From a virus (lineage: Duplodnaviria > Heunggongvirae > Uroviricota > Caudoviricetes): a stretch of DNA of 46,614 nt. The stretch is from IMG/VR virus record IMGVR_UViG_2713896798_000017. The stretch is one strand, 5' to 3'. Positions 3,001 through 6,000 of the stretch are shown here, piece after piece. Positions within the stretch are counted from its first letter, which is position 1, and each line of letters opens with the position of its first letter. A program made the position numbers.

Positions 3001-6000
3001 GGCCAGAGGGCGCAGGCCAGTTCATTGTCGAGTGTTTTCCATGTCTGTTTGTATTCGCGGCGAATGGCAACAGTGACAGCCCCGGTTTTTTCAGCAGCGT
3101 TTTCAGTGTTCTGTTGGTTGACTCTGGCGCGGGTGAGATCAACAACAGACGTGTATTTTCCGGTTTCCTTGCGTTCACCTTCGCGACGTTTTTTCCAGAT
3201 GCGCATCTCTGCCTGAATTTCAGGCCATTTAGCGCCAGGCTCACATTTATGCTTAACCCACCCGATGGCATGCAGTTTAAGTTCAGGATACATGGCGTTA
3301 ACTTCTGGCATTTTCATCAACGCTTCAACGATATGTCCGCCGAATGTTGCCATGTCTTCCTGTAGTAATTCCTGTGCGCTAATCACCATATCAACGGTGA
3401 TGTTTTCGCATGTGTCGAATTTAACCAGGACTGCGTTCTGTACTTCAGGGGACAGCTTGTCAAAATTGACGTTCATCGGATCGGATTCTGGTTCGACCGG
3501 TACAAAGGAAGCTGACTCCTCATCCCAGCGGTTTTCCTGCATATATTCGGTATCCCAGGAATCGAGGGCAGGGCGGGGTATGCCGGGTTTATCCTCGCAG
3601 ACAATAAATTTATAAGCGCAGTCCTGAGCTGCCGGGAATTGCTCCAGAAATTGCCAGTGAAATTTTGCGCGTGCGCGACGCTCATCACCGGCTTCAATGG
3701 CAGTGGCCACCGCAACAGCGCTATCTTCTTTTATGGCCTGTTCGTCAGGAATAGCAGCGCAAATAAAGATTTTACTCATTGTGTTTTAACCTCATTACAG
3801 ATTTAAGGGTGAACAAATCCCTGCCATTGCTGGCATATAAAAATGAAACCGGATATTAATTACGGTGCTGTTTTAAAGTCCTGCCGGTATTTCGTTATTA
3901 TTAGTGTGAGTAGTTTTATCTACCGGATAACAGTTACCGGGAATTTTTTGTTCTGCTGCTGCAGCCATGCATTCTTTCATTGAACCGTATAAGCCAGTCA
4001 CCAGCTCAAGAGATTCGCCGGAAACAAGATAAACTGTCAGAACGAGTGCAAATGTTGTATTCATTGTTTATATCCTTTTTGCAGCAGGTCCAGACGAGCC
4101 AGCATTGAAGGAATGCATACTTCATTTAACAGGTCCTGCTCGAGTTTTCTCTGCTTAATGGCGTCTTCAATAAATGTTTTGTCTCCAGTGATAACGCCAA
4201 TTTCGAAACGAAGTTCAGACGTGCTGGCATTACATGATAACTTTTCCATTATCGCGTCCTCAACAATGAATTTTGTGATGCGGTGCCTGGTGCCTCCAGG
4301 TGACGTTAACCAGTTAACAATTAACGCCGGATACAGAGCATTCTCGTTACTCAGCAAATGACCGCTTTACCGATTTAACTGTTCCGCGTGCGCTGAGCCG
4401 CATTCACCGCATCACAAAATTCACTTTTAAAAAAGGGCGGCAGAGCAGTCACGGAGTAAAACTGATACCGCCAAATGTCACCAGAATATTGATAACAGAG
4501 GGCGTTGCAGCGGGGTTGTCACTTAAGCGTATGGTCAACCTGACAACCCGGTGTCCTCAACGGGGAAAGAATAACCCCGCCATACTTACCGCCGCGCCAT
4601 TTCGCGGATTGCCACAACCGGAAGCGCACGGTCGAATTAAATTTAACGACGGCTCTAAGGGAGAAGGACTTCGCCGTGCACTTTCGTGTTATGCCCTGAC
4701 TTTTCAGGGATATATCCTTTCAGTAAACTGTCAGTGCCGGATTCTTATCTGTGTCCGGCGCACGACCACACGTAGCAGCGTGTTGGTCTCCATTTTTAAT
4801 TCAGCCCTTAATGGAGGATAAAATGCCAAACAAACCATGCCCTGCCTGTAACGCTCTTTCTGGCTTTTTAGAGAAGGGCGGTTATTACATTTTTAACTGT
4901 CCAGAACATGTTGAATTTCATATATCAAAACTTGACAGTATCATTACAAAGCCAAATCAGTATCAGTCTGATTTACTGAATAAAGAGTTAAACGCCGCCC
5001 GAGATTAAGGGCGTAGTGGCCCATTAAAAATATTGCAAAGACCAACTATTGTTGAACTGGATTAAACCAGTAATTCTCTATTGCTCTTATTGTTACCATC
5101 GGATGATTGCCGGGGGTTATTTTAAGTTCGGGAGGAAAAGGCTCTCCATCAGCAGCCATCATTGAGTATGTGAAATCCGCCGACGCAGTCCCTTTCATGA
5201 TAATTCCGAATTTTTCAAGTAATGAGAGCAGTTCCGGTAATCCTGTGTCATCTGAATAACTTTCCTCATAGAAAGAAGCGATTGCCGCAGGAGATGACAG
5301 TTCTCGCTCTGCAATTTTTTTGTAGTTTTCCAGAATTCTTTTTTTGAATACTTTTCCTCGACATGAAAACCCATCACCGAGGCAATCCGCTTTGCAGTTT
5401 CTTCAGTATTCTGGTTGTTTGTTACCGAAACAGAGTACAATCCGGTAAACGCATCGCGCACATTACGAGCCATATTATCAATGTATTTCTTCGTTGCAGA
5501 TTCTAATTCAACTTCGTTCAGACGTTGGTGAAGTGCATGTGCTGCAATTTCCTGGATTTCTTTTAGTAAATCTTTAAATTCCATCTTTAACTCCGTTAGT
5601 CGTTAGATTTTGCCGAACTGGAAAGCGCCTGTTTAAACTCACTGAAGCTGAGAGCTTCCTCGCCTTCGGCAAGGCCTTCGAAGTATTCTTCGTAAGCCTT
5701 TTCCATGATTGTGTCGAAATCCATATCACTCACCTGAGTTTCTTTCCAGCCAGCGACGGGCACCATTTTCGGTTTTAAACGTTTTGCTTTTGGTATACGT
5801 CATCGCGGTGAATGTACCGTCCTGGTTGGGAAACACGCCGTACACCAGAGATTCGTTGTTGCCAAGATCGATAGTATCCATGTTGACCTCATTTCCCCTT
5901 AACGCCGGGTAGCGGAACAAAAACCTGCTGCATAGTTATTAAAGTTGAACCCTGCCGTCATGTTCATACGCCTCGGGCTGGCTACTTACCCCCTGACCAC

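Follow-up and report, generated by a model that had tools for sequence, protein, structure and literature searches.

A dicBF module in the predicted leftward early operon of a lambdoid prophage of the enterohaemorrhagic Escherichia coli type

In the Qin prophage of E. coli K-12 the genes are laid out as ydfABC-dicF-dicB-ydfDE under the promoter dicBp, which is repressed by DicA. The small RNA DicF is processed there from the dicBp transcript by RNase III as well as RNase E (PMC10448788), and its 3' half pairs with the ribosome-binding site (RBS) of ftsZ, as has been validated experimentally (PMC5069750). In prophage CP-933P of enterohaemorrhagic E. coli (EHEC), PaaR2 and YdaS repress PR, PRM and PL933P, with dicB/kil located downstream (PMC8630535). 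The early-left operon of Rac is arranged in turn as racR, ydaG-ydaF-sieB-kilS-kilR-ydaE-racC-recE. EHEC maintains the dicBF locus in multiple copies (PMC5069750), and a dicBF copy (PMC5069750) as well as a paaR2-paaA2-parE2 homologue (PMC8630535) have been placed in CP-933M. We have analyzed a viral stretch of 46,614 nucleotides (nt), IMG/VR record IMGVR_UViG_2713896798_000017, in which an earlier note on this DNA had proposed a Qin-like dicF-dicB-ydfD division-inhibition module. We call the whole stretch the window; all coordinates refer to it, and the module is on the minus strand.

We have determined which genes and RNAs make up the module, their order, their conservation and the architecture of the regulatory sequence around them. 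Taken together, they very probably represent a dicBF module for host takeover, carried by a lambdoid prophage like CP-933M and CP-933P of EHEC and located in a leftward early operon under the control of a repressor. The module is not new: public genomes with identical DNA have its genes annotated, and dicBF copies of EHEC CP-933 prophages have been published. Its importance beyond annotation is small, since the dicBF locus, its presence in the EHEC prophages CP-933O, M and P, and its mechanism have all been published.

The dicF-dicB-ydfD module

The features of the module, read in the window from the end of the operon towards its start, are the following (aa, amino acids; ORF, open reading frame).

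3873-4064, minus strand: ydfD (DUF1482), 63 aa, Pfam PF07358
4061-4249, minus strand: dicB, 62 aa, diverged allele, Pfam PF05358 and NCBIfam NF049927, with the RBS GAGGA at 4257-4261
4265-4425, minus strand: dicF-dicB spacer, closed by a predicted long-range stem of 21 base pairs (bp) with arms at 4405-4425 and 4265-4285
4429-4486, minus strand: DicF small RNA (4435-4486) with its terminator hairpin and a U-run (4429-4434), from Rfam RF00039 and a minimum free energy (MFE) fold
4487-4624, minus strand: 5' part of the DicF precursor of about 190 nt (K-12 RNase III site to RNase E site), 97.8% identical to K-12
4823-5008, plus strand: 61-aa orphan ORF with a CxxC...CPEH motif, phrog_10133 (161.6 bits), placed inside the operon and convergent with it, with the 129-aa gene on one side and the DicF precursor on the other
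5195-5584, minus strand: 129-aa gene in the slot of ydfC, phrog_1363 (172.8 bits, full length)
5596-5724, minus strand: ydfB, 42 aa, 97.7% DNA identity to K-12, phrog_2061, ydfB in RefSeq
5726-5881, minus strand: ydfA (DUF1391), 51 aa, Pfam PF07151 (98.5 bits, cut-off 27.3)
5882-6052, minus strand: predicted leader of the leftward transcript, which has a C-rich, G-poor stretch close to the 5' end

All the elements that the note had named are there at the coordinates given, far above what chance would produce, and the span that had been claimed for DicF and its terminator proved to be correct. The Rfam alignment, for which a poor score had been named as the outcome speaking against DicF, gave 77.0 bits (gathering score 48, E 2e-15) over model positions 1-52 of 52 and with zero non-canonical pairs. 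At the 3' end the MFE fold has a 7+5-bp hairpin followed by UUUUUU, with an energy equal to that of K-12 DicF (-15.9 kcal/mol), and this hairpin also forms when the RNA is folded in a context of 401 nt (4240-4640). The differences from K-12 DicF are U1A and G12A only (98.1% identity), and at position 12 the window agrees with the Rfam consensus. Nucleotides 13-53 are identical and include the validated K-12 pairing region, which argues for ftsZ as a target also here; a duplex prediction on the K-12 ftsZ leader, standing in for the one of the host itself, uses the same core. The energy of the RNA duplex with ftsZ was -36.6 versus a mean of -30.9 (standard deviation 4.2) for shuffled sequences, a shuffle control that is uninformative. 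By its likeness to K-12, DicF would be expected to bind Hfq, to be processed by RNase E as well as RNase III and to repress ftsZ.

The 21-bp stem, found by folding 4240-4640, brings together a segment just 3' of the DicF terminator and another just 5' of the dicB RBS, and is predicted in the window (z -4.7) and in K-12 (z -3.0). We analyzed its conservation in 87 distinct sequences from 120 viral contigs sharing the same DicF core, and found 99.0% of the stem cells paired across these loci. The variation preserves the pairs (C-G to U-G, G-C to G-U, and U-A in two rows), being too slight to serve as proof. Its position agrees with published work in which RNase III cleaves 3' of DicF and a polycistronic RNA is processed (PMC10448788), and by analogy the stem is likely an RNase III substrate that would free the 3' end of the 72-nt form of DicF and the 5' end of the dicB mRNA.

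The RefSeq records of strains O103:H2 12009 and EDL933 have no DicF non-coding RNA annotated, although their DNA is identical or near-identical to the window. The regions concerned are L001 6450-7024 (O103:H2 12009) and L006 4480-5054 (EDL933), and the locus-tag series of O103:H2 12009 skips at this very spot, between RS12025 and RS12015. That DicF is missing there is a useful point. Antisense to the whole DicF precursor region there is an ORF of 110 aa with a TTG start (4489-4821, plus strand), annotated nowhere, which most likely arises only because the RNA sequence is conserved and structured.

Similarity to DicB, the other check that the note had named, was clear for the 62-aa ORF, located 186 nt downstream of DicF. 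The matches to Pfam (131.8 bits, cut-off 27) and to the NCBIfam model CellDivInhibDicB (123.7 bits, cut-off 100) both cover positions 1-62 of 62. The ORF taken as YdfD-like scored 69.2 bits in Pfam (cut-off 25). It begins within the end of dicB, start and stop overlapping by 4 nt (ATGA) as they do in K-12. Against K-12, dicB is 55% identical in protein and 72.5% in DNA, with a ratio of non-synonymous to synonymous change (dN/dS) of 0.54; for ydfD the values are 63%, 75.5% and 0.35. The dS values of both genes are about 0.56-0.64, versus 0.13 for ydfA, and the flanks of this two-gene cassette are 93-98% identical to Qin (93% downstream of ydfD). A dS of about 0.6 together with dN/dS below 1 suggests an old allele under purifying selection between flanks that were shared recently. 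Binding of MinC, septal targeting through ZipA and filamentation are known for the K-12 allele (PMC6832061), and would apply to this DicB by analogy.

The small YdfA- and YdfB-like ORFs reported further upstream are also there. The DNA of ydfA is 97.4% identical to K-12 ydfA, its protein is 86% identical to Rac YdaF, and the end at 5920 given for it earlier corresponds to a TTG-extended form of the same ORF. The leader that precedes it is 88.7% identical at 5894-6052 to the racR-ydaG leader of Rac, a homology that ends at the predicted transcription start, while Qin shares 91% identity with its final 43 nt ahead of ydfA. The first 30 nt or so of the predicted leftward transcript (6020-6052, minus strand) are C-rich and G-poor, CACCAACCACCCACCCCGCCCCACAG, and could be a rut- or nut-like element.

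Between ydfB and the DicF precursor the window differs from Qin, region 4765-5595 being non-homologous. The 129-aa gene gave no alignment to K-12 and is not a homologue of K-12 ydfC. A 50-aa ORF (5046-5198) next to it might have formed with it one gene frameshifted at an A7 run. We rejected this, because the C-terminal part in the alternate frame has no PHROG match and the 129-aa form matches phrog_1363 in full length. The 61-aa orphan ORF on the opposite strand (RefSeq WP_001133046.1) has a good RBS, GGAGG, 6 nt upstream. It has no match in Pfam or NCBIfam, is absent from K-12 Qin and gave zero matches in 50,697 phage records; among 5.8 billion proteins there were only two near-identical clusters (at least 95% identity), from near-identical E. 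coli prophage copies. No alignment was found to the zinc-binding YdaE of Rac, of which it might have been a relative.

All the listed ORFs of the module are intact. The order ydfA-ydfB-[variable slot]-dicF-dicB-ydfD-exonuclease is the one of the K-12 dicBF operon in Qin, as the note had stated, and supports the reading of the region as a dicBF operon. Downstream of ydfD the operon would be continued by three genes.

1308-3779, minus strand: 823-aa exonuclease, phrog_2082, Pfam Rv2179c-like domain
998-1240: DUF4224 gene, after the exonuclease
1-1020: integrase, at the start of the window

Over its first 255 aa the exonuclease has 89% identity to K-12 ydfE, a match that reaches exactly to the place of the IS2 insertion, and from its sequence the gene appears to be the intact counterpart of the ydfE pseudogene. 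With ydfE truncated by IS2 in K-12 and intact here, Qin is thus a decayed version of the layout found in the window.

The module is widespread. At least 80% of its DNA is covered in 392 of the 5426 complete E. coli genomes, with at least 99% identity in about 390 complete genomes, and the insert in the ydfC slot is single-copy and at least 99% identical in 386 of the 392 carriers. Matches of 100% to the whole module come from O103:H2, O111, O45 and related Shiga toxin-producing E. coli; the O103:H2 12009 DNA matches the window at 100% over 3800-6160. In the matching DNA of this strain and of O157:H7 EDL933, RefSeq names dicB, DUF1482, ydfB and DUF1391. The 120 viral contigs with the same DicF core gave a different picture for the neighbours of DicF. 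Their DicB alleles were K-12-like in 44 and window-like in 3, the others being about 60-90% identical to K-12 DicB; the slot upstream of dicF held K-12 ydfC, the 129-aa gene or something else; and the neighbouring repressor, where visible, was DicA-like, RacR-like or window-like. The DicF core together with its processing signals thus forms a nearly invariant island in an early-left operon whose DicB alleles, ydfC slot and repressors are shuffled around it. The mosaicism that the note had seen in this one locus, where segment identities to Qin range from none to 98%, is the rule for the dicBF module.

The predicted leftward promoter and the immunity region

Upstream of the leader we have identified the following features (HTH, helix-turn-helix).

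6063-6106, minus strand: PL-like promoter in an OL-like palindrome, from a promoter scan and a palindrome search; function suggested by analogy to PL933P and lambda PL (PMC8630535)
6158-6445, minus strand: ParE toxin, Pfam ParE_toxin (63.5 bits), about 70% identical to the solved structure of ParE2
6445-6636, minus strand: PaaA-type antitoxin, Pfam PaaA2 (68.3 bits), about 80% identical to the solved structure of PaaA2
6664-7065, minus strand: HTH repressor, 133 aa, by HTH family match
7102-7140: OR-like palindrome between the repressor (minus) and the ydaS-like gene (plus), carrying a PR-like TTGATT-18-TAGGCT
7174-7446, plus strand: ydaS-like gene, Pfam YdaS_toxin (38.8 bits, cut-off 30)
7430-7855, plus strand: ydaT-like gene, Pfam YdaT_toxin (38.9 bits, cut-off 21)

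Control by an early-left promoter, as had been proposed, is well in line with what we found. The PL-like site is sigma-70-like, with a -35 box TTGACA at 6092-6087, a spacer of 18 nt and a -10 box TAGATT at 6068-6063; it reads into ydfA and is the best promoter-like site in 3700-7300 (10/12). Generic promoter and terminator counts were at chance level and were used only where other evidence coincided, so that the promoter call depends here on the coincidence with an operator palindrome. This palindrome is perfect (6068-6106, ACAATTAAAAACTGT...ACAGTTTTTAATTGT) and has a second copy at 7102-7140, where the PR-like boxes, read from the sequence, have the same geometry as the PL-like ones. The exact 15-nt half-site (ACAATWAAAAACTGT) occurs four times in the 46.6 kilobases, with 0 expected, and only in these two places. 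A promoter overlapped by a palindrome of which the divergent repressor/ydaS region has a second copy corresponds to the classical layout of OL and OR, and supports the assignment of the module to an early-left operon.

Over 111 aa the repressor shares 28% identity with DicA (E 6e-12), and its similarity to RacR is confined to the HTH region (34% over 53 aa, E 0.002). It is thus closer to DicA, and orthology to RacR was not found. The HTH regulator, the PaaA2-family antitoxin and the ParE toxin follow each other in this order on one strand, as in a three-component PaaR-PaaA-ParE system of the CP-933P type. A terminator-like hairpin (6139-6124) appears to end this operon of repressor, antitoxin and toxin (6158-7065) just upstream of PL. 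The antitoxin/toxin pair, made of paralogues of CP-933P PaaA2/ParE2, sits between the repressor and PL, in the position of lambda rexAB.

The operator consensus of CP-933P, GTTTAGTAA, was looked for at OL and OR and is absent there, its matches elsewhere being at chance level. Because of this absence, the prophage of the window should have, as judged from its operators, an immunity specificity different from that of CP-933P. It is of use that for this immunity type both the leftward promoter and its operator now have precise positions, distinct in sequence from the operators that were footprinted in CP-933P. Searches with tblastn for KilR, K-12 YdfC, DicC, YdaE, SieB and YnfU gave no match in the window.

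A perfect copy of the published YdaT site TTGATTN6AATCAA (TTGATTCATGAAAATCAA) is found at 7423-7440 (plus strand), where ydaS ends and ydaT begins, and the 30 nt around this box are 96.7% identical in Rac. Beside ydaT there is a gene of the ECs1072 family (L001 10263-10718, window about 8062-8553, minus strand), which in O103:H2 12009 is flagged as a pseudogene because of an internal stop and in EDL933 is intact. Further along the window, all on the plus strand, are a hok/sok-type locus at 13246-13567 (Rfam sok, 107 bits, at 13246-13420; a HokD homologue at 13415-13567, 98% identical to K-12 HokD) and, after it, a YdfU homologue (14018-15064, 86%). In the late-regulatory region of the prophage three tRNA genes (19482-19554, 19565-19638 and 19655-19728) are followed by the small RNA STnc100 (19808-19998, 138 bits).

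Expected working of the module and competing explanations

With the experiments on K-12 and CP-933P as a guide to how the repressor binds, how the RNA is processed and pairs with its targets in vivo, and what DicB and YdfD do, the module would work as follows. In the lysogen the HTH repressor would occupy OR and OL, keeping the leftward promoter off. When repression is lost, either through induction or through a stochastic flip of a bistable switch formed by the repressor and YdaS, PL would fire, giving a polycistronic transcript of ydfA, ydfB, the 129-aa gene, dicF, dicB and ydfD that probably also covers the exonuclease, DUF4224 and integrase genes. RNase III would cut at two places, one about 137 nt upstream of DicF and the other in the 21-bp stem just past the terminator, and RNase E would then form the mature 5' end of DicF. 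Bound to Hfq, DicF would pair through its 3' half with the ftsZ RBS and block the synthesis of FtsZ, while its 5' arm would target metabolic mRNAs (xylR, pykA, manX). Transcripts that read through the DicF terminator would yield DicB and YdfD, the second of which is annotated as a lysis protein in K-12; DicB would bind MinC and, brought to the septum via ZipA, dissolve the Z rings. K-12 DicB also blocks the ManYZ-dependent entry of phage DNA (PMC6832061).

Several observations weigh against this picture or qualify parts of it. As a class, promoter-like sites are no commoner in the region than expected by chance (6 versus 5.6). The OL and OR operators differ from those footprinted in CP-933P, so that binding of the repressor is proposed by analogy only. 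The repressor has no peptidase domain in Pfam; a Rem-like antirepressor was considered as the inducer and rejected, as tblastn of K-12 Rem against the window was empty. In the RNA, the G12A change falls in the 5' targeting arm of DicF. All the biochemistry of DicB comes from the K-12 protein, which is 55% identical to the allele in the window, a difference that matters for studies of DicF and DicB dosage in EHEC. Finally, the convergent 61-aa ORF sits inside the operon, with a possible bearing on read-through.

The divergence of dicB and ydfD raises the question of whether the locus is a silent relic, a cryptic prophage in which the two genes are no longer active and at most the DicF RNA is functional. 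The EHEC CP-933 prophages other than the Shiga toxin phage have been described as cryptic (PMC8630535), the dN/dS values of 0.54 and 0.35 are relatively relaxed, and DicF with its precursor is far better conserved than the coding sequences that flank it, DicB and YdfD being 55% and 63% identical to K-12. Yet both ORFs are full length and match their families end to end, well above the curated cut-offs; the RBS, the overlap for translational coupling and the upstream stem are intact; and a dS of about 0.6 with dN/dS below 1 corresponds to purifying selection on an old allele rather than to decay. Several discrete classes of DicB alleles beside the same DicF core, as we found in the viral contigs, are what the exchange of cassettes with functional alleles would produce. 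We consider such a relic very improbable. Transcription of dicF and dicB from an internal promoter independent of the repressor, lying either within the insert that Qin lacks (4765-5595) or upstream of dicB, seems improbable as well. A weak promoter-like site (9/12, 5148 to 5119, minus strand) lies upstream of the DicF precursor and another (4263 to 4234) by dicB, and an older study, cited in PMC10448788, suggested a promoter upstream of dicB. The number of such sites is nevertheless the one expected by chance, no internal promoter was seen in K-12 by primer extension or on Northern blots (PMC10448788), and the 98% conservation of the precursor, which carries the sites for RNase III and RNase E, speaks for a long transcript that is processed.

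A possible but doubtful proposal concerns what the module is selected for, its main role being the fitness of the lysogen (exclusion of phages through DicB and ManYZ, metabolic rewiring, regulation of EHEC virulence by DicF), with the block of division as a side effect. Low-level or stochastic expression from the repressed operon would be the source of the products. Such a role would agree with the protection by DicB of K-12 against ManYZ-dependent phages (PMC6832061), with the accumulation of DicF in stationary phase and the spontaneous firing of dicBp in a subpopulation of cells (PMC10448788), and with the multiple copies of the locus in EHEC (PMC5069750). This proposal addresses the selective role and not the mechanism, and is largely compatible with the takeover module described above. 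Melson and Kendall (PNAS 2019) reportedly found that EHEC DicF activates translation of pchA under low oxygen, which would count for the same role. On the other side, the place of the module under a PL-type promoter and ahead of exonuclease, xis-like and integrase genes points to a normal early lytic function, and the same module, with dicF and dicB, is carried by the viable temperate phages Tritos and mEp460.

Going beyond the takeover module itself, dicB-ydfD may represent a functionally distinct class of alleles, the exchange of cassettes among prophages with an almost invariant DicF core may maintain these alleles, and the orphan ORF at 4823-5008, between PL and dicF, may act, by convergent transcription, as a brake on read-through into the toxic genes. 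We regard this joint reading as unlikely. If it were true, the dicB-ydfD allele class could differ from the K-12 system of DicB, MinC and ManYZ in its spectrum of phage exclusion or in the specificity for its partners.

Comparison with Qin, EDL933, Rac and CP-933P

The likeness to Qin is the one of the module itself. Gene order, the DicF terminator with the stem downstream, the dicB RBS and the 4-nt overlap of dicB and ydfD are all shared, and the exonuclease matches ydfE. Along the operon, ydfA is 97.4% identical, ydfB 97.7%, the stretch of 138 nt upstream of DicF 97.8% and DicF itself 98.1%; identity falls to 89% in the dicF-dicB spacer, 72.5% in dicB and 75.5% in ydfD, and is 93% downstream of ydfD. 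The two differ in that neither the repressor nor the promoter/operator region ahead of the ydfA leader is related in DNA, the window has a ParE/PaaA pair between the repressor and PL, and its ydfC slot is occupied by non-homologous genes, including the ORF on the opposite strand. The exonuclease of the window is intact, without IS2, and no Rem was found in the window.

A prophage at 1.25 Mb in EDL933 is nearly the same element. Positions 1-8400 of the window are 99.6% identical to it, with 31 mismatches and 3 gaps over 8.4 kilobases, and EDL933 and O103:H2 12009 have the same RefSeq accessions from the integrase to YdaT, except for the exonuclease. We take this prophage to be CP-933M.

The immunity region had been called Rac-like on account of YdaS and YdaT. 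This holds at the level of the families and for the transcribed leader (89%), not for the proteins themselves, since YdaS and YdaT are 33% and 32% identical to those of Rac and the repressor matches RacR in the HTH region only (34%), CP-933P being closer; "Rac-like" thus seems right for families and leader only. What Rac does share is the leader (88.7%), a DUF1391 protein (86%), right-hand genes of the YdaS/YdaT families, the YdaT box at the start of ydaT and, in the equivalent position of its operon, an FtsZ inhibitor (kilR) with a small RNA (kilS). The division inhibitor of Rac is KilR instead of DicB and DicF, and a homologue of KilR was not found in the window.

In CP-933P the differences lie in the published operator GTTTAGTAA, absent from OL and OR of the window, and in the toxin-antitoxin proteins (PaaA about 80%, ParE about 70% identical). 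Gene order and orientation are the same, as are a CI-like HTH repressor without a peptidase domain, palindromic operators that overlap PR and PL, genes for division inhibitors downstream of PL, a perfect YdaT box, and a YdaT about 90% identical (PDB 8bt1). From these likenesses, the PaaR2/PaaA2-ParE2/YdaS/YdaT switch of CP-933P is the closest immunity system characterised so far.

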